DNA of 56,286 nucleotides from a virus (lineage: Duplodnaviria > Caudoviricetes): the IMG/VR virus record IMGVR_UViG_3300034118_001268, positions 1 through 56,286 of that record. One strand, 5' to 3'. A program made the position numbers and the translations under genes. Shown here one piece after another: positions 29,165 through 51,236 of this stretch (position 1 is its first letter; every line of letters begins with the position of its first letter). The notes beneath the pieces were generated by a model. It was given only the letters and a program-made list of their open reading frames with translations, made no database searches and had not been told where the DNA came from.

Positions 29165-29491
29165 ATGGCAAATGGTAAAGCCGGAAGACCCCTGGGCAGT
29201 AAAGACTCGAAGCCAAGGAATGCAGACCGACCGTTTGCCGATGCTTTGAGGGTTGCAATCCACAGAGCCATTGACTCCGGTGAACACAAAGGCAAGGTGC
29301 GATTGAATGTGATTGCTGAGAAGTTGGCAGTCGCCGCCATCAACGGAGACGCTTGGGCAATCAAGGAAATCGCCGATAGAATGGACGGTCGTCCTGCCCA
29401 ACAGATCAATCATGCAGGTTCCAATGGCGATGAGCTTCCAACCGGGATCTCGGTTGTCTTCGTCCCAACAGGCGGAAAGCCTAGTCCGTGA
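29165..29491 (+). CDS. terS: terminase small subunit (probable)
   Basis: [25 protein letters not shown]; overlaps the terL start. Confidence 0.7.
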
Positions 29492-30768
29492 CACAGGCTA
29501 GAGCCCAGTTTCCAGAGAAGCTCCAACTTCTCTTCAAGCCAAAGAGATACAAGGTTCTCCACGGCGGGCGCGGAGGCGCCAAGTCCTGGGGAATTGCTAG
29601 AGCGTTGTTGGTTCTAGCGGCATCGAAACCATTGAGAATACTCTGCGCCCGTGAGTTTCAAAACTCAATTGCAGAGTCGGTCCACCAACTTCTCTCACAA
29701 CAAATCGTGGCGCTCGGCCTTTCGGCATTTTATGATGTTCAAGAGACCAAGATCATAGGCAACAATGGCTCTGAATTTGTTTTTGCTGGTTTGAGAAAGA
29801 ACATCAACTCACTTAAATCATTTGAAGGCGTCGACATCGTCTGGGTCGAAGAAGCTGTGAACGTGTCAAAACGCAGCTGGGAAGTCTTGATCCCCACAAT
29901 CAGAAAGGACGGTTCTGAGATTTGGGTCAGCTTCAATCCCGAACTTGAGACTGATGAGACCTACGTTAGGTTCGTCAAGGATCCCCCTCCAAATGCGGTA
30001 GTGTCGGAGATCTCTTGGAGAGACAACCCCTGGTTCCCTGAGGTGCTTCGTGTAGAGATGGAGACACTGAAGGCCAAGGACCCGGATGCTTGGCTCCACG
30101 TTTGGGAAGGCAAGTGTTCTCAGACTCTGACCGGCGCCATCTACGCCAAGGAGCTTCGTGCTGTGCTCGAGGAGAAGCGCAGAACACGGGTTCCATATGA
30201 TCCTAGCAAACCAGTGTTCACGTTCTGGGACCTTGGCAGGTCGGATCACACGGCCATCTGGTTTGCCCAGCTTGTTGGCTATGAACGTCGCATCATTGAC
30301 TATTACTCAAACAACCTTCAGTCTATTGGTCACTACATGAAGACCCTTCAGACGAAGCCCTATGTGTATGATACTCACTACCTACCTCATGACGCTAGAT
30401 CGAAGACCATCATGCATCCTCTTTCAATCGAGGGTCAGATGGTCGCCGCTGGCTTCAAGGTGCAGATTGTCCCGAACATCAGCATCGAAGACGGCATCAA
30501 TGCGGCTCGCACCATATTTCCTTCTTGCGTCTTTGATGAGCAGAACACTCAAGACGGTTGGCAGTGTCTGAGCCACTATCAATACAAGGTCGACGAAGTC
30601 ACCGGCCAATTCAGCAAAGAACCGCTGCACAATTGGGCCTCCCATGGTGCCGACGCATTCCGCTACCTGGCGGTTGGTCTCAAAGAGGCCAAGCCGAAAG
30701 GTCTGAAACAACAGAAGACCATCAACGTTGAACTGCCCATGACCGGCGGTGCGTGGTTGTCGTCATGA
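29488..30768 (+). CDS. terL: terminase large subunit (PBSX-type)
   Basis: [21 protein letters not shown]...D, HGADAFRY. Confidence 0.95.
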
Positions 30769-30781
30769 AGGAGCCGTCCAA

Positions 30782-33199
30782 ATGAGTGGCTATATCGAAG
30801 TTCCGCAGGGCGATGGTCTGGATCCTGAACAGTTCCTCCCCATTCTCGAACCTCAGAAGCCTGAAGACCTCTCACAAGAGGAAGATCCTCAGGCTACAAA
30901 GAAGGTTCCAAAGCGCCAAGGCGATAAGATCCTTGAAGAGGCCAAGGAGAGGTTCAAACTCTGTGCTGCGTGGGAAGCACTGACTCGAAAGAGAAACCTC
31001 GAGGACTTGAAGTTCGTTGAAGCTGACAGTGAGAACGGCTTTCAATGGCCGAACGATGTTCGCAAGGCCAGAGAGGTCGATAAAAGACCTGCGCTGACTA
31101 TCAACAAGACCAGGCAACACTGCCTGATGATCATCAACGACGCCAAGCAGAACAAGCCGACCATCAAGATCAAAGCGACAGGCGGCGGTGCCACGTATCA
31201 GGCGGCACAGGTGCTTGAGAGCATCGTTCGCAGCATTGAATACCACTCGAATGCTTCCAGTGCCTACGACTCAGCCACTGAGAGCCAGGTCAAAATGGGC
31301 ATCGGCTACTGGCGTGTGGTCACCGACTACGTGGCTGACGACTCATTTGACCAGGAGATCTTCATTCGAAGGGTCCGTGACCCGTTCTCAGTCTATATCG
31401 ACCCTGACATCAATGAGGTTGACGGGTCAGATGCCTCCTACGCATTCATCTTCCAAGATATGCCAGTCGATGAGTTCAACCGATCCTATCCGAACTTGAA
31501 GGGCAAGGTTGGTCGCAGCAATACCGGTCTCGATGAAGGCAACGACTGGGTTGATGATAAACACGTGCGCCGCGCCGAATACTTCAGACGCTTGGAACGT
31601 GAAGAGGAACTCATATCATTTGTCGACCCATCGAGCAACGAGAGGAAGGTTGTCAAGGCCTCGGACCTGAGTCCTGAGATCGTCGACATGGTTAAGAACG
31701 ACCCTATGACACGGACGAGGATGGCCTCAACATACGACGTTGAGTGGTTCTTGATCGTTGGCTCCATGGTTCTCGAGACCAAGATTTGGCCTGGGAAATA
31801 CATCCCGATCGTTCGAGTGATTGGTGAAGAGACCATCATTGACAAAGAGCTTGATCGCAAGGGCCATGTGAGGGCGTTGAAAGACCCTCAACGTGTTTAC
31901 AACTATTGGAGTTCGTCGGCCGTCGAGAACGTTGCCCTCCAGTCCAAGACACCATACATCGCATCTGCCGAGTCAATTGAGGGCTTCGAGAACCAGTACG
32001 GCAACGCCAATCAGATCAACTATTCGGTCCTGCCCTACAATGCCTACGATGACCAGGGGAGGCCGCTACAACCACCGAAGCGCCAAGAGCCTGTGTCCAT
32101 GCCTCAAGCATACATCACCGGCCTCCAGATTTCAAGCTCTGAAATGATGGCCGTCTCAGGCCAGTACGAGCCCACGCTCGGGGAGCAGGGTGATGAGAAG
32201 ACGGGCATAGCCATCCAGGAACGTCAGCGTACTGGCAACAAGGCGACATTCCACTACATTGACAACCTTGCTGTTGCCATTAGGTTCACCGGCAAGATCC
32301 TGATTGACCTGATCCCGAAGATCTATGACACGCCGAGAATGATCAGAATTCTGGGCGAGGATGGGACTGAGAGTCAAATTCAGATCGACCCTACTCAACA
32401 GCAGGCTTTGGCTGAAAGCAGGAAGCCATCACAACGTGAAATGGATAAACAGGTCGCCATCACCCAAATACTCAATCCAAACGTTGGGAGATACGAAGTT
32501 CAATCTGACGTGGGTCCGAACTACGCAACCAAGCGTCAAGAAGCTTTCAACTCATTCACTCAGATCATTTCCACCCGTCCTGAGTTGGTGCAGATCATCG
32601 GCGATATTCTCATGAAGGCTGGCGACTTCCCCATGGCGGACGAGGCCGCGGAGCGACTGAAGAGGATGGTTCCGAAGCAGGCGTTGGGCGAAGGACCTGA
32701 TCCTGAGACCCAGATCCTGATGGAACAGGTCGAAGGGTTGAAACAAAGCTTAGCAGCTGCGTTGCAAGCTCTGGCCGATAAAACCGGTGAAACCAAAGTC
32801 AGTCAGGAAAAAGTGGCCGTTGACACCTTCAAGGCTGAAACTGACCGGATGCAGACCATGATCGACCTTGTTGACAAGGCGTTGGCTAGAGCCGCCGATC
32901 CTGCCGCCATGGCTGACGCTGTCAGGAAAGTTTTGTTAGATACATTGGGCGACGAAGGTAGTAATATACCTGACCTCATACAAGGATACCAGAACATGGC
33001 ACCGCCTGACCAAGGCATCGATCAACCAAATTCACTGGCACAGCCCATGGGCAATCCTGGTGAAGCCACGCCGCGAGACATACAACCATCGCCGGATGAC
33101 ACACCCATCGAAGGGATGAGGCGTGCACCCGATGGTAAATACTACCTGCCCGACCCTGAGCGTCCGGGCAAATACCTCGAAGTTTTGGGGACTACCTGA
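30782..33199 (+). CDS. portal protein (P22-like)
   Basis: RPALTINK, KDPQRVYNYW, GRYEV...GPNYATKRQE; size and position; AAGGAG SD before MSGY. Confidence 0.9.
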   Translation: MSGYIEVPQGDGLDPEQFLPILEPQKPEDLSQEEDPQATKKVPKRQGDKILEEAKERFKLCAAWEALTRKRNLEDLKFVEADSENGFQWPNDVRKAREVDKRPALTINKTRQHCLMIINDAKQNKPTIKIKATGGGATYQAAQVLESIVRSIEYHSNASSAYDSATESQVKMGIGYWRVVTDYVADDSFDQEIFIRRVRDPFSVYIDPDINEVDGSDASYAFIFQDMPVDEFNRSYPNLKGKVGRSNTGLDEGNDWVDDKHVRRAEYFRRLEREEELISFVDPSSNERKVVKASDLSPEIVDMVKNDPMTRTRMASTYDVEWFLIVGSMVLETKIWPGKYIPIVRVIGEETIIDKELDRKGHVRALKDPQRVYNYWSSSAVENVALQSKTPYIASAESIEGFENQYGNANQINYSVLPYNAYDDQGRPLQPPKRQEPVSMPQAYITGLQISSSEMMAVSGQYEPTLGEQGDEKTGIAIQERQRTGNKATFHYIDNLAVAIRFTGKILIDLIPKIYDTPRMIRILGEDGTESQIQIDPTQQQALAESRKPSQREMDKQVAITQILNPNVGRYEVQSDVGPNYATKRQEAFNSFTQIISTRPELVQIIGDILMKAGDFPMADEAAERLKRMVPKQALGEGPDPETQILMEQVEGLKQSLAAALQALADKTGETKVSQEKVAVDTFKAETDRMQTMIDLVDKALARAADPAAMADAVRKVLLDTLGDEGSNIPDLIQGYQNMAPPDQGIDQPNSLAQPMGNPGEATPRDIQPSPDDTPIEGMRRAPDGKYYLPDPERPGKYLEVLGTT

Positions 33200-33200
33200 T

Positions 33201-33830
33201 ATGTCAGGCAACATCAAAACCAGACCGGTTGATCACGATCCCTTTGCTCCTCAGTTGGTCAAAGCTCCAAAGACCAGAAGTGGTCGAGAAGAGTTGGTCG
33301 ACACTATGAGACGAATGGCGAGTCAAAGCACCGATGGGAATTACCGAGGCGCTCTCGATCAGATGGAGATGGCCATGTTCTCGGCCTATCCTAACCGCTT
33401 TCTTGCGATGCACAATGGCATGCCAGTTGGAGCAATAGCTTACGGCTCCTCAAAGGGTACGTCAGAAGACCACGTTGAAGTGCATCATCTCGGGTCCATC
33501 CACCCGGGCGTTGGTAAGATGCTTCTCGAACAAGCCATGCAGCATGCCACAAAGACCGACAAGATCATCCACCTCCATTCCACCGAAGAAGCTATTCCGT
33601 TTTATGAGCGGATGGGCTTCACTCAGAGGAATGAGTACGAGAATGATCCTGTCATGCAGTTCGATCCGAGTGGCATGGGGCCTGGTGAAACGTGGAAACC
33701 TGAGACAGAGGAGAAGGAACACCCGTTGATCGACGGTCTGCGCCAAGCAGCTGACGGCAATTGGTATATCCCAAACCCAGACAGGCCGGGCAAGTATCTC
33801 CAAGTTGTGGAACCTTCAAAAGGCGTTTGA
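33201..33830 (+). CDS. GNAT acetyltransferase with an N-terminal PVDHDPF tag and a portal-like C-terminal module
   Basis: HLGSIHPGVGKMLL...AIPFYERMGF GNAT motifs. Confidence 0.75.
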   Translation: MSGNIKTRPVDHDPFAPQLVKAPKTRSGREELVDTMRRMASQSTDGNYRGALDQMEMAMFSAYPNRFLAMHNGMPVGAIAYGSSKGTSEDHVEVHHLGSIHPGVGKMLLEQAMQHATKTDKIIHLHSTEEAIPFYERMGFTQRNEYENDPVMQFDPSGMGPGETWKPETEEKEHPLIDGLRQAADGNWYIPNPDRPGKYLQVVEPSKGV

Positions 33831-33833
33831 ACA

Positions 33834-34445
33834 ATGTCAGGATCCCAGAACCCGATCATCAAGAAGTTCGGATACTCTGATCTAGATGAGAAGGGGCAGA
33901 ACAAACTTTTTGACCAGTTCTCGTCGTCCTATAAAAAGGAGACTGGCTCTTCATGGGACCGACCTAAGTTTGAGAGCCGGGCACAGAATTGGGAGTTCCA
34001 TGGTGACACCGACGGCTTCATAGCAGTCAGACCTCAGCAGTCTGGCATGAAGAAGATGGTTGGGGTTGCCGGCGATCCGAGATCCATCATCAAAGGTGTC
34101 GACAGCCTTCAAGCAGAAGGCGGACCGATTTGGGGTGCCGTGTCTTCACCGTTAGCTGCCATGGCCAAGAAGCGTGGCATGATTGTGCCACACCTCCACT
34201 TCGGTGGACCCACGCTGATCAAAGCCATCATGCCGACGGTGCCCGACAAGGTCTTTGGAGGCGTGCGCCCTCAAGTCCAAAAGGATGGTGGCCTGGTCAT
34301 GGACTACCCAGACGTGGGGAAGACGACTAAATACCTTGTGATGAACAAGGAGTATTTGAATGAGATGCTGAAGCATCCTACTGCCTCCAAGACAATTGCT
34401 GGCAACGCAGCCATTAAGACATTCTTGAAGTTGGTGGGAGTCTAA
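33834..34445 (+). CDS. hypothetical protein (cargo cassette)
   Basis: ORF packing; MSGS start. Confidence 0.7.
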   Translation: MSGSQNPIIKKFGYSDLDEKGQNKLFDQFSSSYKKETGSSWDRPKFESRAQNWEFHGDTDGFIAVRPQQSGMKKMVGVAGDPRSIIKGVDSLQAEGGPIWGAVSSPLAAMAKKRGMIVPHLHFGGPTLIKAIMPTVPDKVFGGVRPQVQKDGGLVMDYPDVGKTTKYLVMNKEYLNEMLKHPTASKTIAGNAAIKTFLKLVGV

Positions 34446-34447
34446 CC

Positions 34448-35788
34448 GTGTCTGGATCTTCCAACAAACTTGCTCCCATAATGGCATGGCACGCGTCGCC
34501 GTACGATTTCGACAAGTTTGGTGAAATGAAGAAGACTGTTGGGACAGGGCAAGGAGCTTCGTCCTACGGGAAAGGTGCGGCATACGTCGCTGAGTCTCGT
34601 TCCGTGTCAGGTCCCGGTCGATCAGAATATATGGAGGAATTTGCAAAGCATCCAGCATCTGTTGGCGAGAAGGTCGGTGGTTTCAGCATGGCCCAGATCC
34701 AGGATGACATGACTCCTAATAACTGGAGGGGGTTTTCTACGGCAAATCTTCCGCATCCTTTCAACACCTTGTCAACCCGCGCTTTTGAGTTGATTTCAGA
34801 GGCGACCTACGCCCACGCTTTGCACGGAGGTTCCGGCGCCAAAAGTCTTAAAGATCAGGTCAATCGTGATGCGGATCAGTTGATCGCAGAACCGGATGAT
34901 TATACAACTCATGGAGAGGACGCCCAGTTTCTGATTGCAGCAGCGAAAGAAGCCAAAGCATTCATCGAGAAACACCACACATCTCCCAAAAATAGCGGTC
35001 CATACTCATATCAAGTGGCCGTCCACCTAACGCCTGAGACGATGCTTGATTGGGATAGTGTCTTGGGAGATCATCATGAGCAGGCTCAGAAGAAGTTAGC
35101 CCCGTTGCAACACATGATGGAAGGAACTGAAACTCTAAGCGATTACGACCTTTCTCAAATGGACGAAGAAGACCGCAAAGCCTATGAGGAGGATAAATCG
35201 TCTCGAGGTTTCACAAATCCTAATAAGAGTGGACAGGATTTTTACCACGACTTGATGAGACACTTTGACAAAGGTGGAGTAGATATTGGTATTGCCGCGT
35301 CCGAAGCTCTTTACAATGCTGGGATCCACGGGATCCGGTATTTAGATGGTTTGAGCAGACAAATTCCTCCTGAACTCAAATACAACGATAAGCCAATAGG
35401 GAAATATCTAAATGAACTTGCAAAATCAGACAAAGTCGAGCCCAAATATGAGTCCCTGAACCTTATTGCGAAAGTTCATAGACAGATCACGCATGGTTCA
35501 ATGAATTTTGACCAATTGAAAAAGGTATTTGAAAGCAATCGTCCTCTTCCAATTCATTGGGAATTCGACTCCGATGTCTTATCCGAAGCTAGAGATTTAT
35601 TGAAAAATGAGGCATCGAAGTTTTCTACTTACCGCCCGTCAGCCAGCTACAACTATGTCATTTTCCACCCGGATTTTGTAGAAGCATTGTCTCAATACAA
35701 TATCAAGGGCGATAAGGTGAAAGACTTTGGGCCGGGTGTCCACCTGAAATCTGTTGAGCACGATCCGTTTAAGGACGAAGGCAAATGA
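34448..35788 (+). CDS. ADP-ribosyltransferase-like (ART-PolyVal-type) protein, paralog 1
   Basis: AWHASP..F, GTGQGA..YG.GAAY, Y.V...LDWD, GIHGIRYLD, NYVIF; C-terminal VEHDPF. Confidence 0.65.
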   Translation: MSGSSNKLAPIMAWHASPYDFDKFGEMKKTVGTGQGASSYGKGAAYVAESRSVSGPGRSEYMEEFAKHPASVGEKVGGFSMAQIQDDMTPNNWRGFSTANLPHPFNTLSTRAFELISEATYAHALHGGSGAKSLKDQVNRDADQLIAEPDDYTTHGEDAQFLIAAAKEAKAFIEKHHTSPKNSGPYSYQVAVHLTPETMLDWDSVLGDHHEQAQKKLAPLQHMMEGTETLSDYDLSQMDEEDRKAYEEDKSSRGFTNPNKSGQDFYHDLMRHFDKGGVDIGIAASEALYNAGIHGIRYLDGLSRQIPPELKYNDKPIGKYLNELAKSDKVEPKYESLNLIAKVHRQITHGSMNFDQLKKVFESNRPLPIHWEFDSDVLSEARDLLKNEASKFSTYRPSASYNYVIFHPDFVEALSQYNIKGDKVKDFGPGVHLKSVEHDPFKDEGK

Positions 35789-37215
35789 GCGGTAGTGACT
35801 TTCGCAAAACTCTGACGGCGTGGCACGCATCCCCTTTCGACATCCCCGAAGGGCAGTTTGCTCCTATGCGGGCGTCTTCAGGCACCGGCCAGGGCGCGGC
35901 AGCTTACGGAAGAGGGGCAGCCTATGTGGCCCAGTCTCCAGCCTTATCAGGGCCTGGGGAGTCAGTCTACATGAAAGAGTTTTCTCGACACCGCGCCGTT
36001 ACAAAATCTGAAAAAAGGTGGCACATCAACATTGATGGTGAATGGGAACCACTTGATGATAGTTTTCACGATTTGTCAAGCGCCGTGGCTATGGATGAGG
36101 AACACAAAACAGCATTAGATCAAAGAGAAGCTGGTTTTAATTGGATCTCAAATCGTCTTAGCAAGTTTAACCAACACATGCACGATAATGCTTTAAACCA
36201 AATAGAGGTAGATCTCAATATGTTGGGAGACGAAGATTTTGCAAAGTATATGGGTATGCTGGCAGGGCCACCTGTCGACGATAACAATTACACGCCGGAC
36301 CACGCTAGAATGGTTAGAAGTGGGTTAGAGCTTGCAAAAAAGAAATTGAGATTTCTTGGAGATGACCCCACAGGTGGTCCATACTCATACGAAGTGGCTC
36401 TAGACTTGTCCCCTCACAACATGTTGGATTGGGATAACACATTAGAGGACCACCACCCGAAAGCTCTTGAAAAAATTAAGTCAGCTTTTTCCAACGTTAT
36501 TGAGGACGCAAAGCAGGAGACTCACCCTTTTGACGGTTTGTCCGGAAAATCGGGAGAAGAAGTCTATTCAGCCCTTCAAAGGCTCCATGCTTCTGGGTAT
36601 TCGTTGAAGGGGACCATTCCGGAACACGATTTGAAGTTCGACGCCTCTGAAGGTTTGCACAAAGCTGGAATTAGGGCAATCAGATATATGGATGGTGATA
36701 GTCGGGGGAAGTGGATTGATTACAAAAAAGACCTTGAGTTGAGCAAGCCGAGATATATTGAAGAAGTTGTCGGACTTGCCCCCAGAGAAGGTGCCGAAAA
36801 GAAGGTCACCAATCCAAAAGTTTTGGACGAAATAACTAGAACTCTTTTCCTATCGGACAATGTATTTGACAGAAAACCCCAGCCATCAATTCAAGGCGTC
36901 ATTAGCCATATCACTGATTTGCTTCGCGGCTATGACAAAAAGCCCGAAGAAGTTGCGCAATACGCCAAGTTCTTAAACTGGATTGCGGAAAATCAAAACC
37001 ACATTGAGGTCAAGAAGGTCACCAAAACCTTACCGCCTTTGAAGCCGGTCCCGGAAAAGCCCAAGAATTTGACTTACAACTACGTCGTTCTTGACCCAAA
37101 ATTCATCAAGACAATCGCCCAATACAATATCAAAGGCGAGAAGCTCAAGGACTACGGTTCTGGCGTCCACCTCCATCCAGTTGATCACGACCCGTTTAAG
37201 GATAGCGGCCAATGA
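35785..37215 (+). CDS. ART-like protein, paralog 2
   Basis: Same conserved blocks; C-terminal PVDHDPF. Confidence 0.65.
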   Translation: MSGSDFRKTLTAWHASPFDIPEGQFAPMRASSGTGQGAAAYGRGAAYVAQSPALSGPGESVYMKEFSRHRAVTKSEKRWHINIDGEWEPLDDSFHDLSSAVAMDEEHKTALDQREAGFNWISNRLSKFNQHMHDNALNQIEVDLNMLGDEDFAKYMGMLAGPPVDDNNYTPDHARMVRSGLELAKKKLRFLGDDPTGGPYSYEVALDLSPHNMLDWDNTLEDHHPKALEKIKSAFSNVIEDAKQETHPFDGLSGKSGEEVYSALQRLHASGYSLKGTIPEHDLKFDASEGLHKAGIRAIRYMDGDSRGKWIDYKKDLELSKPRYIEEVVGLAPREGAEKKVTNPKVLDEITRTLFLSDNVFDRKPQPSIQGVISHITDLLRGYDKKPEEVAQYAKFLNWIAENQNHIEVKKVTKTLPPLKPVPEKPKNLTYNYVVLDPKFIKTIAQYNIKGEKLKDYGSGVHLHPVDHDPFKDSGQ

Positions 37216-38462
37216 GCGATAAGAGATTTGGCAACGCTCTAATGGCGTGGCACGCTTCGCCCTTCGACATTCCAGAGGGGAAGTTTGGCGCGATGAGTGA
37301 AGTGTCTGGCAAGGGCCAAGGCGCTGCGTCTTTCGGGCGTGGGGCTGCCTACGTGGCAGAGTCTCCAGCTTTGTCAGGTCCCGGCCAATCGGAGTATATG
37401 AAAGAATTCTCAACACATCCCGCGGTAGTTGACAATCGCGGAGCCCCAAACCTGCGGTTTAACGGCATAAACCTTCAAGAATTACATAGGGCAAAGACTC
37501 AGGACTATGATCGCTATTTGAAATTGCTTGACCTTTCGAGCCTTAATCGTAGTCCCCATCTTCTAGATAATTTGCACGAATTTATCAATGTTTACAATGA
37601 GGCCCATAGCGACACATTGTATGAAGCTCCCCAAAATTTGACAGAAGGTTTTGGTGCTTTTTTAAGGTATAAGATTGACGGGGAACATTATACAGATCAA
37701 AATTCACGACCTGAGGATATTGAAGCAAGAGATAAATTCTTGAGGGAGGACTCCGCAGAACTGTGGAGTAAAGTTCTACAATATACGACACCCTATGTTT
37801 CAAATGAGTCCGAGGGCCCTTACTCATATCAAGTCGCCGTCCACCTGACTCCCGAGACCATGTTAGATTGGGACAATCCGTTGAAAGACCATCATCCAGA
37901 AGCTCAAAATAAAATCCTTAAAGCTTTTGGAGACCCTATCGCAGCTGAACACCTGGGGGGCTCATACATCAGCGGAGAAAGAGTTTATAGACAGCTGCAG
38001 TCAAACAATCGCGGTTCAGACTTCGCCGCATCCGAAGCTCTTTATAACGCCGGCATCCACGGGATCAGATATATGGATGGTGCAACTCGTAGAAACACTA
38101 AATCCGTGATGTTCAAAGGCCAACTCCTAATTCCAGACGGGTCAACCTATGATCCTGTTTTGAGCGAAGTAAATCTTCGCCTTTTGGCAAATAACGGGGA
38201 CGTAGACCTATCTTTGGAACATATGAGGGAAAGAGGTGAACAATTTCCATCAACTGAACCAACTATGAAAAAAGCTATAGATTGGTTAAAAGAAAATAGA
38301 GAACATGTCAGCATAGCGGGACCCACCTACAACTACGTCATTTTCCACCCGGACTTCATTAAAGCTTTGGCCCAATACGACATCAAAGGGGACAAGATCA
38401 AGGACTATGGTCCAGGCGTCCATCTAAAATCGGTCGAACACGACCCATTCAAAGGAGAATAG
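37212..38462 (+). CDS. ART-like protein, paralog 3
   Basis: Same conserved blocks; C-terminal VEHDPF. Confidence 0.65.
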   Translation: MSDKRFGNALMAWHASPFDIPEGKFGAMSEVSGKGQGAASFGRGAAYVAESPALSGPGQSEYMKEFSTHPAVVDNRGAPNLRFNGINLQELHRAKTQDYDRYLKLLDLSSLNRSPHLLDNLHEFINVYNEAHSDTLYEAPQNLTEGFGAFLRYKIDGEHYTDQNSRPEDIEARDKFLREDSAELWSKVLQYTTPYVSNESEGPYSYQVAVHLTPETMLDWDNPLKDHHPEAQNKILKAFGDPIAAEHLGGSYISGERVYRQLQSNNRGSDFAASEALYNAGIHGIRYMDGATRRNTKSVMFKGQLLIPDGSTYDPVLSEVNLRLLANNGDVDLSLEHMRERGEQFPSTEPTMKKAIDWLKENREHVSIAGPTYNYVIFHPDFIKALAQYDIKGDKIKDYGPGVHLKSVEHDPFKGE

Positions 38463-45200: not shown

Positions 45201-45751
45201 CAAATCATCACATCAAGCTGGCCGACTTGGGCGGCGAGATTTTGGACGTCGCCAAAACTCTCGTTCGTGAACATTTTGATGAGTTCGGATTGGTCGACAT
45301 TCGGGAAAACCACGAAGGGTCTCCTCATGTGGACACGAAGTCCATATATTTGCGAGCTCCGCCGTGGCCCTTCAAATCACTGAGAGATGCGCAAAATGAC
45401 ACGCGCGTGGTGAATTGGCCAGCTTTGCAGCTTGATCGAAGGTTCGACGCCGTTTTGACCGCTCTTCAACACGTTGTTGGTATGCCTCTTGCGAGAGTTT
45501 TGATCGTCGATCTTCGTGCTGGAGGTTCGATTAAGTCGCACAGAGACGAAGGCCAGTATGCTGAACAGACCGAGCGTTTTCACTATCCGATTGAGACGAA
45601 TGATAAAGCCGTCTCAAAAATCGGCGACGAGGAGATTAACATGCCCGAGGGCACCGTGTGGTGGTATGATAAGACCGTCGAACACAGTGCAAAAAATGAT
45701 GGAGAGAGTGGTAGGATCCACATCATCTTTGACTGTTGGAGACCCCAATGA
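45197..45751 (+). CDS. aspartyl/asparaginyl beta-hydroxylase-like 2OG-Fe(II) dioxygenase
   Basis: H-R-D...RFHYPI...EH..N...RIHIIFD facial-triad pattern. Confidence 0.8.
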   Translation: MTNHHIKLADLGGEILDVAKTLVREHFDEFGLVDIRENHEGSPHVDTKSIYLRAPPWPFKSLRDAQNDTRVVNWPALQLDRRFDAVLTALQHVVGMPLARVLIVDLRAGGSIKSHRDEGQYAEQTERFHYPIETNDKAVSKIGDEEINMPEGTVWWYDKTVEHSAKNDGESGRIHIIFDCWRPQ

Positions 45752-46200
45752 TCTTTGCGGTCGAAAAATTCAGTGACATTGTTCAAGAATTGAAGGACTT
45801 GATTTTTGAACATTGGCGCGAAGTCACGTCGGAGCCAGAGACGCGTCCCCTCGACGTGCACTGGGATCAGTACTTTGAGCTCGAGAAGCAGAACATGATT
45901 TTTGCGTTGACGGCTCGTGCTGACGGGCGGTTGGTGGGATACATCATCCATCTTATCTATCGCCCTCTCCATTACCGCTATATGCTAATGGCGTCCGATG
46001 ATGCGCATTTCCTCAAGAAGGAATTTCGCAAAGGGCCGGCCGCCATGAAAATGTTCAAAGCTGCTGAAAAAGCTTTGAAGGAATTGGGCGTCAATTCTGT
46101 GACCTATCACAGCAAGACCCGTCCTGAAATAAACAAGCGGCCGGTATTTGAGCGTCTTGGCTATTCGGCGCACGAATATCTCTTCGTGAAACATCTCTAG
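45748..46200 (+). CDS. GNAT acetyltransferase
   Basis: LVGY...FLKKEFRKG...FERLGY. Confidence 0.75.
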   Translation: MIFAVEKFSDIVQELKDLIFEHWREVTSEPETRPLDVHWDQYFELEKQNMIFALTARADGRLVGYIIHLIYRPLHYRYMLMASDDAHFLKKEFRKGPAAMKMFKAAEKALKELGVNSVTYHSKTRPEINKRPVFERLGYSAHEYLFVKHL

Positions 46201-46212
46201 GGAGTTAGCACT

Positions 46213-47061
46213 ATGGCATTTTCAGCCATCGCCGTTGGAGCTGCCGTAGTAGGTGGCGCGACAGCAATAATAGGGGGCAACGCTGCGAGAGACGCGGCGC
46301 GAACTCAAGCAAATGCTACGCGTGAGGCTACAGCAGCCCAGACGGCAATTTACCAACAGAACAGGCAAGACCTTTCTCCGTATGTTAGCCTCGGCAATGC
46401 TGGCGCAGAAAGAATGCGTGAACTTTTGGACTCCGGAGCGTTGGATAGTCGGGGCCTGACCTACACCCCCTACAGGGAATTCACAGGCGTCAATGCTGAC
46501 AACGTCGCCCAAACTCCTGGTTATCAATTTGTAAGAAACGAGGGTTTGCGGGCTGTCACAAATACCAACACAGCGTCTGGTCTTGCTGGCTCAGGGGCTC
46601 AAGCTGCTGGAGCCGCCAGCTATGTGACCGGCCTCGCCGAGAACACTTACAACAGCCAGGTGCAGAACAATCTGGCAGAATACATGGCGGGATTGGAAGG
46701 CCACGTCAGAAACTTTGAAACTGGTTTCAACGCTGACCAGACCGGTCTCACAAATATGTATAACAGGATCATGGGTGTCACGCAAGTTGGTCAAGGGGCA
46801 GTTGCCACGCAGGCAAACGCTGGGACCATACTTTCTGGTCAGATTGGTCAAAATCTCACCGGGGCAGCTAACGCAAATGCCGCGGGCACAATTGGTGTGG
46901 CGAATGCGTATGCCGGTGGCCTTAACACTGCGTTCAGCGGCGTTTCGAACGCCTTGATTATGAACCAACTACTCAATAGGTACGGGTCGAGACCCGGAGG
47001 GTCTGGTCCCGTTAATACGGCGCCACAACCCGGGTCTAACACGCAGCAACAAGCTCGATAG
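46213..47061 (+). CDS. ejection/DNA-transfer protein (P22 gp7-like)
   Basis: Hydrophobic Gly/Ala N-terminus, PYVSLG, TPGYQF, Ala/Gln/Asn-rich. Confidence 0.75.
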   Translation: MAFSAIAVGAAVVGGATAIIGGNAARDAARTQANATREATAAQTAIYQQNRQDLSPYVSLGNAGAERMRELLDSGALDSRGLTYTPYREFTGVNADNVAQTPGYQFVRNEGLRAVTNTNTASGLAGSGAQAAGAASYVTGLAENTYNSQVQNNLAEYMAGLEGHVRNFETGFNADQTGLTNMYNRIMGVTQVGQGAVATQANAGTILSGQIGQNLTGAANANAAGTIGVANAYAGGLNTAFSGVSNALIMNQLLNRYGSRPGGSGPVNTAPQPGSNTQQQAR

Positions 47062-47073
47062 GAGATTTGTCAC

Positions 47074-48747
47074 ATGTCAGGCGGACTCGATCCCTCCATC
47101 GCTCTTGGGTTTAAGCCCACAGCTCCCGCGGGGAACACCAATCCATTCAGTCAATTTTCGCAAACTGTTGACATGGCGAATTCCATCAACAGATTTCGGA
47201 GAGAGGACGAGACTTTCAACGCTCAACAGACTATCGGTAGAGCGTTGCAAAATTCTATGGACCCGCAGACTGGTCAGATCAATCAGGAAGCTTTCAAGGC
47301 CGAAATTGCCAATAATCCGATGGCGGGATTTTTGGCTCCACAAGCTCTTGCCCAAGCCAAAGCATTGGAACAGGGCAATCTGCAAGTTCAACAAACTCAA
47401 GCTCTCCTTGGTATGGCTCGACTCAACAATATGCGCCAATCTATTCAGGGATTGTTGGCAAACCCCAACGTGACCAGACAAGATGTGGTTTCGGCAGTCG
47501 GTGAATTGTTGGCCCTTCCTGAAAATGAACGGCCATTCTCAGCGACGGTGGCCGCTGCTACTCTTGCCAACCTCCCGACAAATCCTGCGGGGGTGCGCCA
47601 GTGGCTTCTTCAACAAATGGCATCTACGGACCAGGGTCTGCAGCAAATTCAAAGATTTCTGCCCAATCCTACTGGCGTCCAAACTGGAGCCGCCACAAGG
47701 TTTGTCGACACAAACCCTCTTACAAATCCCAATGCGGCTGGGCAGTCGGTCACAAACGAGCCTGGTCCGGACGCTCGGAACAATCTCGTCCAACGCTACA
47801 ATCCGAATACTCGTCAAATGGAATTCGTCCCTCGCCAGGAAATTGCTCCAATGGTGGGAGGAGAAGGGGCCCCTGCCACGGGCACCGCTCCCGGCCAGGG
47901 AACTCCTCCGGGCACAGGGGCACCGCGTCCACCAATGCCGACTCAACAGCCAGGAGGAAGACCTGGAATGGGGGATGGGAGGTATCCGGGCTCTCCAAGA
48001 CCTGGACAAGTGCCTGGAGCTTCAAGTCCTCCAACTGAAAGACCGACTCCTTCCGCCGCTCCTGCTGGACCCCCTCTTGGAGCTGCCGGAGCGTCTGAAG
48101 TTGTGGCGCAACGTTCTGCAGAATTGAGTATGGATTTGTCCAGAGAAGCCGGTCAAGTTCCTATGATGTTGGCGACGCTCGGAAATATGAAGACAATGTT
48201 GACTCAATTCAACACAGGTCCCGGTGCCGCCTGGACGCGTGAAATGGTCAACGCGTATAACCGAATTGCCCCTCCGACAATGCAGATCAGGGTTGAAGGC
48301 ACGGCAGCGCAGGAAGAATTTGTCAAACTCTCAACTCAGTTGGCTCAACAGCAGTTCCAAGCTCTTGGAGGGACTGGAGCTAACGAGCAGTTGGCCAGTG
48401 CTATGAGAACAAGTCCAAATGAAACTCTTTCAAAGATGGGTAACCAGAGCATCATTGCCCTTCTGCAAGGTAACGCAGATGCAATCAGGGTGAAGAGTGA
48501 CGAATGGCAGAAGTGGTTGTCTTCTGGCCGCGGTCCGGAAACCTACACCCAGTTCTCGAATGAGTTCAACAAGGGCTTTGATCCGAGGATCTTCCAGGCT
48601 ATACACATGAGCGCGGAAAGCCGTCGACAGATGATGAACGCCATGTCTCAAAACGAGCGTGAAGACTTCAACAGAAATTTCAGAACCGCTGTCGATAAGG
48701 GCTGGGTTCGCGTTCCAGGAACTGGGGCTCAGGGAGGAAGTCGATAA
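47074..48747 (+). CDS. ejection protein (gp20-like position)
   Basis: LDPSIALG N-terminus, Gln/Pro-rich, synteny. Confidence 0.65.
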   Translation: MSGGLDPSIALGFKPTAPAGNTNPFSQFSQTVDMANSINRFRREDETFNAQQTIGRALQNSMDPQTGQINQEAFKAEIANNPMAGFLAPQALAQAKALEQGNLQVQQTQALLGMARLNNMRQSIQGLLANPNVTRQDVVSAVGELLALPENERPFSATVAAATLANLPTNPAGVRQWLLQQMASTDQGLQQIQRFLPNPTGVQTGAATRFVDTNPLTNPNAAGQSVTNEPGPDARNNLVQRYNPNTRQMEFVPRQEIAPMVGGEGAPATGTAPGQGTPPGTGAPRPPMPTQQPGGRPGMGDGRYPGSPRPGQVPGASSPPTERPTPSAAPAGPPLGAAGASEVVAQRSAELSMDLSREAGQVPMMLATLGNMKTMLTQFNTGPGAAWTREMVNAYNRIAPPTMQIRVEGTAAQEEFVKLSTQLAQQQFQALGGTGANEQLASAMRTSPNETLSKMGNQSIIALLQGNADAIRVKSDEWQKWLSSGRGPETYTQFSNEFNKGFDPRIFQAIHMSAESRRQMMNAMSQNEREDFNRNFRTAVDKGWVRVPGTGAQGGSR

Positions 48748-51236
48748 TGTCGGTCGACAATTTCAACGATTTGATTGAAGAAGCGGCTCGGCGCCACAAC
48801 GTCGACCCTAATTTGATCAAAGCTGTCATGCACATTGAAAGTCGTGGAAATCCACGCGCATTCAACAGAGAGTCTAAGGCTGCCGGATTGATGCAAATCA
48901 TTCCTGACACGGCCCGCAGACTTGGCGTGACTGATCCATACGATCCAGCCCAATCTATCGACGCCGGCGCTCGCCACCTTGCTGAAAGTTTGAACAGACA
49001 CGGCGACCCTTCAAAAGCCATTTTGGAATACCACGGCGGAAGAAGGCAGGCAAATTGGGGGCCTAGAACTCAAGCCTATCTCGAAAACGTGATGAATAGG
49101 TTCAACGAAATCAACCAGCCACGTGATCCCCAGGCTGAAAACCAGACTCCAACCCAACCAGCAGCTCCTGTTGGAAACGCACAACCGACTTCCCAGCCAG
49201 GGCAAACTCAAACCAGTCAGACTGCTCAAGATCCGATTGAGATGTTTTTGTCAGGGGCTGGCCAGGAAAGCGCCGTTGCACCGACTGTCAGAGGCCCTAG
49301 AATTATCAGTCAAGCTTCGGCTTCTGAAAACACTCCGCAGGCTTCCACCGTGCCGGGTCCCAGAGCCATTCCAGATGGTATGGCCGATGATCCAATAGGC
49401 CAGTTCCTTTTCGGGGTTCAGAACGAAACTCAACGTCCAGATCCTGCAACAGGTCAAATCCCACCCCCTCGCAGACAAACCTCAGCCGGTGAAAGATTTG
49501 GGGCTGGGTTGGGTCGCGGTCTACGCGATGTTGTTGACGCGCCTGCTGAATTCCTTTCAAATCAAGCTGAAAAATCTGGACTGACCGGATATTTGAAAGA
49601 CAGCTCTTTTGGAAGGTTTTTGGAAAGGGCGGGAGTTCCGATCACTTCCGGCCAACAAACCAGAGAAGGAAATCTCGAAGAGCGGAGAAATTTCGAGAGA
49701 GATTTCGGAGACAGTGGGATGGCCTTGGCCGGAAGAGTTGGCGGCCAGGTAGCAGGGGTTCTCGGTCCTCTCAAAGCTGGAGGAGCTGTGATACGTGGAG
49801 CCGGCTCCATTGTTGGTGCCACTGCCCCAACGTTGACGGCCCCCATCGCTCCTGCAGCTCGGGCTCTGGCTGGAACCACGTCTCCCGCCAATCCGTTTTT
49901 GAGATTTGGTGCTAGAGCGACTACGGGCGCTGCCCAAGGTGCGGCAACCACAGCCATGACTCTCGATCCTACTCAAGACACAGGCACCCAGATGGCAATC
50001 GGGACGGGAGCTGGTGCCGTAGGTAATGCGGTGCTCGCGCCTGCCATTTCCGCCGGCGCAAATAGCATGAGGCAGTTCCTGTCTCCGTCTCTTAATCCTC
50101 AGGTTGCGGCGTTGGCCCAAAGAGCAGAAACTCTGGGCGTCCCAGTCAGAGGCAGTCAAATAAGCGAAAGCCCGTTCATCAAGTGGCTTGATGAAACTTT
50201 GAACAACATTCCTGGAAGCGGGCAAGTTGCGAGAAACGCTGAACAACGGTCTCAATTTACAAGAGCGGTCTCAAAAGCGATCGGGGAAAATACCGACGCC
50301 ATCACTCGAGATACTCTCCAAGCTGCTGAACGCAGAATTGGAAACACTATGAGCGATGTGGCAAGAAGAACCACTCTTCGTACTGACCAACAGTTCACAG
50401 ACGCTCTGCAAAAAATTGACGACGAGTTGTTGAGAATGCCACTGCCAGACGGGTCGGCAAAAGCTCTGGCGCGTCAGCTAGAAGACGTGAGAAATGCCAC
50501 GTCCTCCGGGACTATGTCTGGCGAAGCCTACCAAGCTTTTACCAGATACGGCACTCCATTGTCTATGGCTCAAAGATCTCCGGATCCGAACATCCGTCAT
50601 TTTGCGGGACAGGTTCGCGATGCGTTGGATGATATGCTTGAGAGATCAGCTGCGCCGGAACTTGTTGACACTCTTCGCAGAGCTCGTAGTCAGTGGAGAG
50701 CGATGGTGAATGTTGTCGAACCTATGATCGAAAAGTCTCCAAACGGTCAGATCGATCCAGCCGCCTTGTTGACCCGCATTCGTGCAGCGTACCCAGATTT
50801 CTTGAGAAAGGGGACTGGTGGAAACGAGCTTGGGGAATTGGCAATGATCGGCGCACAATTCATGCCGAGGATGCCAAATTCTGGTAGTGCTCAAAGAGTA
50901 GCTATCGGGGCAGGCATAGCAAACACTGGCGCCTATCTCTTAGACCCGTCAATGTTGGCCACTGGTCTCGGGGTCACAGCTGGTACGGCCGCCGTTGGAC
51001 GCGGAACTGGTGCTCTCCTTGCTAGTGACGTGTATAGAGACATGCTGTTGGGCAGAGGTATTCCAGGAGCCGTCGGTAGGGGAATTGATGAGGTCGGCGC
51101 TGGAGCTAATCGGCTTTTCCAAGCTGGAGGAGTTCCAGCCATGTCTTCAGCTGCTAGACAGGATTGGGCTAATGAACCTTTGCCCATGCCTGAACCCAAC
51201 GGTCAAGTCATTGAAATCTTCCCACCTCGGAGATAG
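48747..51236 (+). CDS. large ejection protein with an N-terminal lytic transglycosylase (SLT) domain
   Basis: AVMHIESRGNP, AAGLMQI, AILEYHGG. Confidence 0.85.
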   Translation: MSVDNFNDLIEEAARRHNVDPNLIKAVMHIESRGNPRAFNRESKAAGLMQIIPDTARRLGVTDPYDPAQSIDAGARHLAESLNRHGDPSKAILEYHGGRRQANWGPRTQAYLENVMNRFNEINQPRDPQAENQTPTQPAAPVGNAQPTSQPGQTQTSQTAQDPIEMFLSGAGQESAVAPTVRGPRIISQASASENTPQASTVPGPRAIPDGMADDPIGQFLFGVQNETQRPDPATGQIPPPRRQTSAGERFGAGLGRGLRDVVDAPAEFLSNQAEKSGLTGYLKDSSFGRFLERAGVPITSGQQTREGNLEERRNFERDFGDSGMALAGRVGGQVAGVLGPLKAGGAVIRGAGSIVGATAPTLTAPIAPAARALAGTTSPANPFLRFGARATTGAAQGAATTAMTLDPTQDTGTQMAIGTGAGAVGNAVLAPAISAGANSMRQFLSPSLNPQVAALAQRAETLGVPVRGSQISESPFIKWLDETLNNIPGSGQVARNAEQRSQFTRAVSKAIGENTDAITRDTLQAAERRIGNTMSDVARRTTLRTDQQFTDALQKIDDELLRMPLPDGSAKALARQLEDVRNATSSGTMSGEAYQAFTRYGTPLSMAQRSPDPNIRHFAGQVRDALDDMLERSAAPELVDTLRRARSQWRAMVNVVEPMIEKSPNGQIDPAALLTRIRAAYPDFLRKGTGGNELGELAMIGAQFMPRMPNSGSAQRVAIGAGIANTGAYLLDPSMLATGLGVTAGTAAVGRGTGALLASDVYRDMLLGRGIPGAVGRGIDEVGAGANRLFQAGGVPAMSSAARQDWANEPLPMPEPNGQVIEIFPPRR

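Follow-up and report, generated by a model that had tools for sequence, protein, structure and literature searches.

The way in which podophages choose non-structural enzymes to package and inject is, to our knowledge, largely unknown outside T4 and P1. A locus in IMG/VR virus record IMGVR_UViG_3300034118_001268, a whole 56,286-base podophage record rated complete (the window, at its full length), puts the question in a concrete form: can a peptide of a few residues clip an enzyme onto the portal? The portal protein of this phage and the GNAT acetyltransferase encoded directly after it end in the same small module, termed here the hook, a C-terminal mini-domain of about 27-30 residues with the consensus PPV-x-GARQAPDG-x-WY-x-PDP-x-RPGKYL-x-V. 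A short linear motif, the tag (consensus L-x-P-V-[DE]-[HYF]-D-P-F), stands near the start of the same GNAT and near the ends of three ART-PolyVal-like paralogs of the same cassette. An earlier note on this DNA had proposed that hook and tag are partners, with the portal offering a hook, the GNAT extending the chain and the paralogs attaching by their tags.

The two-way coupling of the motifs across viral loci, their spread and their recurrence at junctions of bacterial polyketide synthase-nonribosomal peptide synthetase (PKS-NRPS) assembly lines indicate that hook and tag are most likely a non-covalent docking pair. Direct binding of the one by the other is highly probable from these comparisons. 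The best explanation of the cassette is that the pair tethers enzymes to the inner end of the portal for packaging and ejection, a reading that is probable without being secure.

Two Motifs in One Cassette

A six-frame search of the window with the hook core pattern DG-x-[WYF]-Y-x-P-[DN]-P-x-RPGKY finds two sites, at 33131-33175 in the portal and 33753-33797 in the GNAT. The tag pattern [VILA][DE]HDPF finds four, at 33228-33245 (GNAT residues 10-15), 35753-35770, 37180-37197 and 38433-38450. There is no further hook or tag in the six frames of the 56,286 bases, and a looser tag pattern and a hook hidden Markov model (HMM) agree. The HMM, whose training alignment included the portal hook and excluded the GNAT hook, gives two matches of 52.2 bits each, the next best reaching 3.5 bits. 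The near-identical ends of portal and GNAT described in the earlier note are present, its coordinates being right to within about a codon. The GNAT start PVDHDPF and the paralog ends SVEHDPF, PVDHDPF and SVEHDPF all appear in the translations, and the confinement of both motifs to this cassette holds throughout the window.

The stretches of DNA that encode the two hooks agree in 71 of 132 aligned columns, and identical residues use different codons, which means that the resemblance is maintained in the protein and does not come from a recent DNA repeat. A recent duplication of the hook was ruled out on these synonymous-site differences. They also speak against a reading in which both peptides are by-products of DNA, encoded by a conserved gene-boundary or recombination linker, as the usual position of hook and tag on the two sides of a gene junction could suggest. 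From the nearer hook it is 1.9-4.6 kb downstream to the ART-like tags, whose C-termini adjoin no hook; tags occur in tandem and at either protein end; and amino acids, not codons, are conserved across viral and bacterial loci. Such an origin in DNA is scarcely credible.

The tag of the three paralogs forms the tip of a C-terminal block of ~45 residues that they conserve, so these proteins share it by descent. Judged by sequence, it is the sharing beyond them that is non-trivial: the GNAT has the tag at its N-terminus, and so do unrelated proteins at their ends in well over a hundred further loci. The idea that the motifs sit on otherwise unrelated proteins stands for the portal, the GNAT and many other loci, and falls for the paralogs among themselves.

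Coupling of Hook and Tag Across Viral Loci

Does a hook predict a tag elsewhere? The best 80 of 151 confirmed viral stretches were fetched by the hook alone; the hook pattern matched 76 of them, and two were cut off just past the hook, leaving 74. In 70 of the 74 a tag lies -30 to +300 nt from the stop of the hook gene, in 123 copies altogether. These loci hold 16 more tags on the same strand and one on the minus strand in 2.41 million six-frame residues, the tag pattern having been widened to Y, F or W in place of H after the genes downstream of apparent exceptions were inspected. Chance co-occurrence was rejected on this count of one minus-strand tag against 139 on the plus strand. In three of the four exceptions (L054, L058 and L070; numbers with L are our locus labels) the hook gene is a portal gene and the next gene ends in a tag, and the fourth, L094, looks frameshifted. 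Tags also lie right past the match in three of the four loci that the hook pattern missed.

The order of the two genes is strict. In 49 of 57 non-redundant pairs, the start codon of the tagged gene lies -10 to +16 nt from the stop of the hook gene, and the tagged proteins of the 57 pairs begin M-x(2-4)-L-x-P-V-[DE]-[HYF]-D-P-F-A. The tag thus usually stands at the very start of the protein encoded next to the hook gene, a point on which the loci differ from the picture in the earlier note. C-terminal tags are the less common form: among the matches listed, 30 of 73 non-redundant open reading frames (ORFs) seeded by the tag have it within 50 residues of the C-terminus, and 11 of these 30 have an N-terminal tag too. 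Tags number one to three per protein, in tandem.

The converse search started from the tag. At least 118 stretches were found by a tag DNA pattern, and 76 new loci among the matches listed were examined, to which the following counts refer. A hook is present in 66. A strong same-strand upstream hook stands at most 15 residues from its ORF end in 52 by the HMM, and somewhat farther from it in L107, L117 and L150; a diverged hook ends an upstream protein of ~920 residues (766 in L103) in 10; and in L148 tag and hook share one ORF. The co-occurrence across genomes that the earlier note had called for is therefore seen from both sides. Its partnership of the module with V[DE]HDPF gains from this coupling and its high specificity. 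The hook is not confined to portals, however, and a simple chain does not account for all related contigs (below).

The diverged hook is of the ARRAPDGEFYVQHP-x-TGQYFRIRRR type and ends the ~920-aa proteins of L095, L100, L109, L113, L114, L122, L130, L165 and L169. At these loci a tag gene on the same strand starts ~0.1-0.8 kb past the hook, and the tag lies ~30-60 residues into the frame.

Proteins that hold both motifs are rare, the GNAT of the window being the one case among the best 150 hook proteins. A single gene split here and contiguous elsewhere was considered and rejected, as those 150 proteins include no fused form; L148 and L158 do hold both motifs. Their ART-like proteins (L148:48-1115 and L158:1985-3424) end in a tag, sometimes a second tag, and then a hook, ~10-30 residues apart.

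The Same Pair in Bacterial Assembly Lines

The pair is not confined to phages. A hook search covered 185,579 bacterial and archaeal genomes, and 80 of 109 confirmed stretches were analysed. Phage-type hooks occur in 24 of the 80, mostly prophage-like (e.g. in Ancylobacter, Methylobacterium and Nitrobacter), and 21 of the 24 have adjoining tags. The remaining 56 (within L222-L287) carry a PKS-type hook, distinguished by a four-residue insertion and placed at the C-terminus of very large proteins. At 32 of these loci the next gene starts with a tag, at 15 a tag lies farther downstream, at eight there is none, and one is cut off. Pairs of this type span cyanobacteria, Terriglobia, Myxococcota, Bacteroidota, Burkholderiales and others.

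All five pairs scanned for domains consist of an upstream protein with acyltransferase (AT), carrier and class-III aminotransferase domains and a downstream one with condensation and adenylation domains. By sequence, the hook-tag site is where docking domains join consecutive megasynthase subunits, and hook and tag are short terminal regions of consecutive assembly-line subunits, which is what docking domains generally are. Examples are L269:1-6137, L283:1-6086 and L244:1-6101. In L248, L254 and L256 (Mycolicibacterium/Mycobacterium), PKS-type hooks are followed by an NRPS that has no recognisable tag. The third position of the tag is F in 46 of 47 copies beside PKS-type hooks; beside phage-type hooks the same scan found H 27 times, Y 10, N five and F three. 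This contrast between hook classes may reflect lineage only.

A comparison with betahD-SLiM docking, as described in the accessible text of the 2021 review PMC9113145, is instructive. As proposed for hook and tag, a disordered motif shorter than 15 residues there binds a small folded domain of the next subunit, the partners lie at the termini of consecutive subunits, one motif serves several partners and the flanking domains are diverse. The polarity, however, is reversed: in the hook-tag pair the upstream protein has the folded unit at its C-terminus, and the downstream protein has the motif at its N-terminus. The betahD unit needs an N-terminal alpha-beta-beta-alpha-alpha arrangement (PMC9113145, in excerpt), whereas the predicted model of the hook has strands only. 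Moreover, the hook has no sequence match to solved chains, and the hook-tag pair also occurs in phage virion proteins. The accessible text of PMC9113145 has no class of this shape or polarity, no aminotransferase junctions and no bacteriophages; the PKS-NRPS hook-tag pair looks like a docking-domain class missing from that review, as far as its text was available.

These junctions bear on an alternative in which hook and tag never touch and both are bound by one shared third partner, for instance the scaffolding protein, the inner surface of the capsid or a chaperone of assembly. In P22, portal and ejection proteins both enter the procapsid by way of the scaffolding protein, and small hook-only proteins encoded after hook-bearing portals in three related contigs (L008-L010, below) would be easier to understand if hooks were targeting signals. 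A common receptor leaves unexplained, however, the strict order in which gene n bears the hook and gene n+1 the tag, with coupled starts in 49 of 57 pairs, and the near absence of proteins with both motifs (1 of 150). It would also have to account for the same pair at PKS-NRPS junctions of bacteria that have no capsid or scaffold. Recognition by a third component is decidedly unlikely, and direct docking of tag on hook is the reading carried forward.

Predicted Structure of the Hook

The portal's last 42 residues were modelled with AlphaFold2 (AF2; 52 rows). Residues 11-40 reach a predicted local distance difference test (pLDDT) of 72-89 and form three short strands, and the first 10 residues, which belong to the linker, have a mean of 48. 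The hook is predicted from this model to be a small folded unit. With this 42-residue query, Foldseek gave no match in the PDB at E ≤ 0.001 (best E 2.7), and the hook profile against PDB sequences reached at best E 0.064, in short, chance-like stretches. The likeness of the hook to a WW domain, as a three-stranded mini-domain, is an analogy that Foldseek does not match at this query length. Prediction of the complex (52 rows each) gave an ipSAE of 0.20 in both runs against a mark of 0.32; the runs had no controls and count neither for nor against binding. In the 57 viral pairs, covariation between the residue after the hook's aromatic pair and the choice of H or Y/F in the tag follows no clean rule.

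MAFFT sets isolated tag peptides on the V-P-D-P stretch of the hook, the two sharing a weak P-x-D-x-x-P likeness. It might hint at a common origin, or be meaningless.

Carriers of Hook and Tag

What kinds of protein carry the two motifs? A profile built from nine hooks was searched against 1.84 billion cluster representatives and found 804 at E ≤ 0.001, 21 of them at E ≤ 1e-10; the counts of hook proteins given here refer to the best 150 of the 804. These range from 39 to 1235 aa (median 333.5), and 143 of them have a hook that stops no more than 15 residues short of the C-terminus. Pfam assigns P22_portal, SLT and Hydrolase_2 to three each, Phage_lysozyme to two, and InPase, an endosialidase chaperone domain and the GNAT of the window to one each, the majority having no family match. 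PHROG annotations include 'released from the phage upon host infection' (5), 'internal virion protein with endolysin domain', transglycosylase, endolysin and portal. Most non-portal hook proteins thus look, by sequence, like internal or ejected virion proteins. Portals do carry the hook, as the earlier note held, but by Pfam just 3 of the 150 are portals, so the hook is not specifically a portal device. Four of the 150 (P0035, P0039, P0040 and P0048) have two or three hooks in tandem, and P0048 resembles the C-terminal piece of a portal. With tandem tags as well as tandem hooks, both partners of the pair are multivalent.

Among the 57 non-redundant tagged proteins encoded downstream of hooks, Pfam finds ddrB-ParB, WHH nuclease and phosphoribosyl transferase domains twice each, and InPase, a VgrG3-like C-terminal hydrolase, M15 peptidase, SLT, Rho_N, lysozyme and a colicin-type DNase once each. 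PHROG adds DarB-like antirestriction proteins (2), a virion RNA polymerase (1) and a minor head protein (1). These proteins look, from their families, like packaged effectors. Several of the domains are those of the 'polyvalent proteins' for which Iyer and co-authors argue packaging and injection, in some cases as portal or MuF fusions; likely packaging and occasional fusions of this kind are described for ART-PolyVal and InPase domains (PMC5512222, in excerpt). The range of carriers, which the earlier note had wanted surveyed, is wide on both sides of the pair.

Cultured phages offer one example of the pair, Pseudanabaena phage Pam5: a hook stands at the end of gp12, annotated 'tail lysozyme', and two tags stand at the start of gp13. 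A 44-aa hook protein searched against the cultured phage records matched Pam5 alone, and the N-terminus of Pam5_13 matched only itself. A 563-aa hook protein matched 667 records, the 40 places listed all lying within its residues 69-513; its hook is at 535-562, so that search is silent on the hook. Neither the cassette (blastn) nor the GNAT (tblastn) had a match in 50,697 phage records.

Hook-Bearing Portals and a Model for Cargo Loading

Contigs with a hook-bearing portal allow the portal-loading reading to be followed beyond this phage. Four related viral contigs, L007-L010, share the layout of the cassette, and L007 is nearly the same phage. The portals of L008, L009 and L010 end in a hook or a worn hook, and the protein encoded next is one of 56-95 aa that ends in a hook and has no tag and no GNAT or other enzyme domain. 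All three keep the ~200-aa protein and three or four ART-like paralogs, mostly ending in tags. More distant ART-like proteins (L011-L013) follow hook-less portals and have a different tail.

Farther afield, hook-bearing portals are followed by tagged proteins in L054, L058, L059/L060, L070 and L092/L093, and likewise in L103, L107, L117, L121, L134, L147, L158 and L161. Many contigs with hook-bearing portals encode capsid proteins 53-72% identical to that of the window. The cargo varies from contig to contig: ART-like proteins (L054, L134, L158), a protein of 1100 aa (L161), one of 1512 aa (L121) and small proteins with no family. Loading on the portal fits the contigs that combine a hook-bearing portal with tagged proteins, as far as their sequences go. 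Most other loci have the hook gene in the ejection-protein region, ~3 kb past the head-closure gene.

The proposed clip would join two separately made proteins, and binding would probably occur as the tagged N-terminus emerges beside the freshly finished hook. Each of the twelve portal subunits would bear a hook on the flexible linker that ends its C-terminal extension. P22 portal C-terminal domains putatively extend inwards (PMC4992974, in excerpt), and since the hook sits on the portal extension that in P22 points into the head, the GNAT would dock on the portal there. Docked by its N-terminal tag, it would present a second hook, and the hooks of portal or GNAT would in turn receive the C-terminal tags of the ART-PolyVal-like enzymes. 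The procapsid would form around the portal and enclose the docked enzymes, whose copy number would be set by the number of hooks. Packaging by such tethering is, on the comparative evidence, the likelier course of events. The enzymes would then leave through the portal with the DNA. The copy numbers reported for the P22 ejection proteins gp7, gp16 and gp20, about 12, 12 and 30 (PMC8402733, in excerpt), are of the order that twelve portal sockets and their extenders would yield. In phages generally, the clip would join internal or ejected proteins to one another and, in several lineages, to the portal.

Both motifs contain charged residues that never vary (RPGKY of the hook, D-x-D of the tag), and these could also suit a covalent joining or processing after docking, for example an isopeptide bond between hook Lys and tag Asp, or cleavage. 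The pair would in that case signal ligation or maturation in place of acting as a reversible clip. HK97-type capsid proteins form such covalent bonds. A covalent link to the portal would hinder ejection, however, and docking in PKS-NRPS systems is reversible in all classes reviewed in the accessible text of PMC9113145. A covalent outcome is very unlikely.

Docking might instead serve an enzyme complex, or assembly of the portal region, in the infected cell, with the tagged proteins perhaps never entering the virion. The PKS-NRPS pair clearly serves assembly of a cytoplasmic complex, and the recognisable ejection proteins of the window have neither motif. The cassette, however, lies between the portal and scaffold genes, and carriers elsewhere match internal virion, ejected and polyvalent-effector families. 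ART-PolyVal and InPase domains are, again, likely packaged and at times fused to portal or MuF (PMC5512222, in excerpt), and a hook fixed to the portal puts its partner at the one vertex where the head forms. A purely intracellular role is accordingly judged unlikely, if less so than the other alternatives, and tethering to the portal for packaging and ejection is preferred.

Several observations weigh against the preferred reading. The support is wholly comparative; many loci are interrelated, and the lineages behind the 57 de-duplicated pairs may not be independent. Ten of the 76 tag-seeded loci listed have no hook, at least five of these having little or no upstream sequence, and no tag lies within 3 kb at eight PKS-type loci and at three loci outside the PKS-type hook pattern. 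No solved structure of the hook turned up by PDB sequence or fold search. The position of the portal's C-terminal end inside the head is carried over by analogy from P22. The ejection-protein genes of the window (46213-51236) have neither motif, so docking is not the general route into this head. Tags have decayed on some ART-like paralogs, and the conserved 203-aa protein of the cassette, which has no family and no motif, stays unexplained by hook and tag. Finally, the hook-only proteins of L008-L010 do not fit a simple model of tethering and extension. These hook-only proteins hold the slot of the GNAT, whereas tag-plus-hook proteins like the GNAT recur in L148 and L158.

Comparison with Known Loading Systems

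The internal proteins of T4 have a capsid targeting sequence that is N-terminal, acts via the scaffolding core and is removed by the prohead protease. Like the tag, it is a short terminal peptide, and it suffices to bring a non-structural protein into the head, as is proposed for the tag. The proposed partner of the tag, in contrast, is a module on the portal or on cargo, the tag may stand at either end, and nothing suggests cleavage. No protease family turned up in a scan limited to 18 proteins of the window. Encapsulin cargo-loading peptides come close in another way, as short C-terminal peptides that dock enzymes inside an HK97-fold shell. Their receptor is the shell protein, whereas the capsid protein of this phage has no hook.

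We know of no terminal docking motifs described for P22 gp7, gp16 and gp20. These ejection proteins resemble the proposed cargo in being low in copy number, internal near the portal axis and released with the DNA, and hook and tag carriers of other phages hold the corresponding gene positions; their homologues in the window, however, carry neither motif. Another parallel is the fusion of effectors to portal or MuF proteins (PMC5512222, in excerpt), in which InPase, ART and nuclease domains sit on a head-vertex protein and are packaged and injected. The same domain families occur among tagged proteins. A fusion is one polypeptide, whereas hook and tag are a proposed non-covalent clip between separate gene products, by which one portal could take several different cargoes and cargo genes could be exchanged.

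As text, the motif strings turn up in seven papers, none of which concerns phages or docking. Nor is the pair described in the literature searched, which included the accessible text of PMC5512222, PMC9113145, PMC3870968 and PMC9382816 and had subscription journals and supplements outside its scope; it is apparently undescribed in print. A more far-reaching reading, offered tentatively, is that hook and tag may be a portable two-part docking code of an undescribed fold class, common to phage virions and PKS-NRPS assembly lines, with the portal as an extendable rack of twelve sockets for interchangeable cargo and a tag of 7-9 residues sufficient for packaging and injection.

If the portal does offer a socket for a seven-residue plug, peptides and point mutants could put cargo selection to a direct test. 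Such a socket would also explain how cargo genes are swapped between the portal and scaffold genes without a packaging signal having to evolve anew. Hundreds of uncharacterised proteins in uncultured phages are marked by the pair as probable internal or ejected proteins, with their partners predicted. The PKS-NRPS occurrence would add a class to the docking domains listed in the 2021 review; tools of this kind are sought for assembly-line re-wiring, and an orthogonal clip as short as this one would likewise be handy for loading proteins into phage heads.

Gene Layout of the Cassette

The genes and motifs of the cassette are collected in Table 1. The Pfam model PF16510 matches the portal with E 9.2e-161 and 536.7 bits, against a cut-off of 26.1, over residues 66-674, which leaves an extension of 142 residues at the C-terminus. 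The ATG of the GNAT gene lies two bases past the portal stop. Three acetyltransferase profiles exceed their cut-offs in the GNAT: Acetyltransf_7 (31.1 bits; cut-off 27), Acetyltransf_10 (29.4; 23.6) and Acetyltransf_1 (26.0; 20.7). Cluster representative P0034 is this GNAT, with the same 209 residues and an identical start. The 203-aa protein has no Pfam or PHROG match and neither hook nor tag, and copies 54-96% identical to it occur in every L007-L010 cassette.

Table 1. Positions of cassette genes and motifs in the window, and of hook-only genes in related contigs
Feature	Positions	Strand	Remarks
Large terminase gene	29488-30768	+	
Portal gene	30749-33199	+	P22-like, 816 aa; ORF; PF16510; phrog_156
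Linker before portal hook	32993-33103	+	Pro/Gln/Gly-rich; translation
Hook 1, portal C-terminal module	33104-33184	+	PIEG...KYLEV; 4 residues before stop
GNAT acetyltransferase gene	33201-33830	+	209 aa; N-terminal tag and C-terminal hook
Tag 1, GNAT	33225-33245	+	PVDHDPF; GNAT residues 9-15
Hook 2, GNAT C-terminal module	33726-33806	+	LIDG...KYLQV; 7 residues before stop
203-aa protein	33834-34445	+	ORF; conserved within cassette
ART-PolyVal-like paralog 1	34448-35788	+	446 aa; C-terminal tag
Tag of paralog 1	35750-35770	+	SVEHDPF; 5 residues before stop
ART-PolyVal-like paralog 2	35785-37215	+	476 aa; C-terminal tag
Tag of paralog 2	37177-37197	+	PVDHDPF; 5 residues before stop
ART-PolyVal-like paralog 3	37212-38462	+	416 aa; C-terminal tag
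Tag of paralog 3	38430-38450	+	SVEHDPF; 3 residues before stop
Hook-only small protein, L008	5076-5363		Gene coupled to hook-bearing portal
Hook-only small protein, L009	1827-1997		Gene coupled to hook-bearing portal
Hook-only small protein, L010	4026-4229		Gene coupled to hook-bearing portal

On the 3' side of the paralogs, the plus strand encodes a 102-aa protein, the scaffolding protein and the capsid protein, and farther downstream come genes for head closure, for ejection proteins, of which one has a transglycosylase domain, and for a tail fibre or spike. At 45736-46197, among the tail and ejection genes, lies the gene for a second acetyltransferase (phrog_1249, E 2.1e-15), which has neither hook nor tag.

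ART-PolyVal-Like Paralogs

Paralogs 2 and 3 are 33% and 44% identical to paralog 1. Of 31 relatives found, 24 were fetched, and all 24 end in a tag. No family, PF18760 (ART-PolyVal) included, was found at E ≤ 0.01 for any of the three window paralogs, and the ART-PolyVal profile matched 3 of 35 aligned relatives (best E 4.4e-6). The AF2 model of paralog 3 has a mean pLDDT of 79, the last two blocks, which form the tag tail, reaching 49 and 60. Compared with BFVD, it finds ART-PolyVal-like proteins with E 3.2e-11 and 1.6e-10, but with template modelling (TM) scores of 0.36-0.37. Atlas scores of 0.87-0.89 for the ART-like protein are a lead at most. Against PDB folds the model found none (best E 1.9), and the profile had no match at E ≤ 1 among PDB sequences. 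Profile and model evidence together suggest that the window paralogs belong to the ART-PolyVal neighbourhood.

Worn forms of the tag in some ART-like paralogs of the related contigs (L009:5476-6699, L010:5661-7352 and L008:5980-7311) include VEGDNQK, VDGNPF and VDRDPF, as if not all ART-like copies needed docking.

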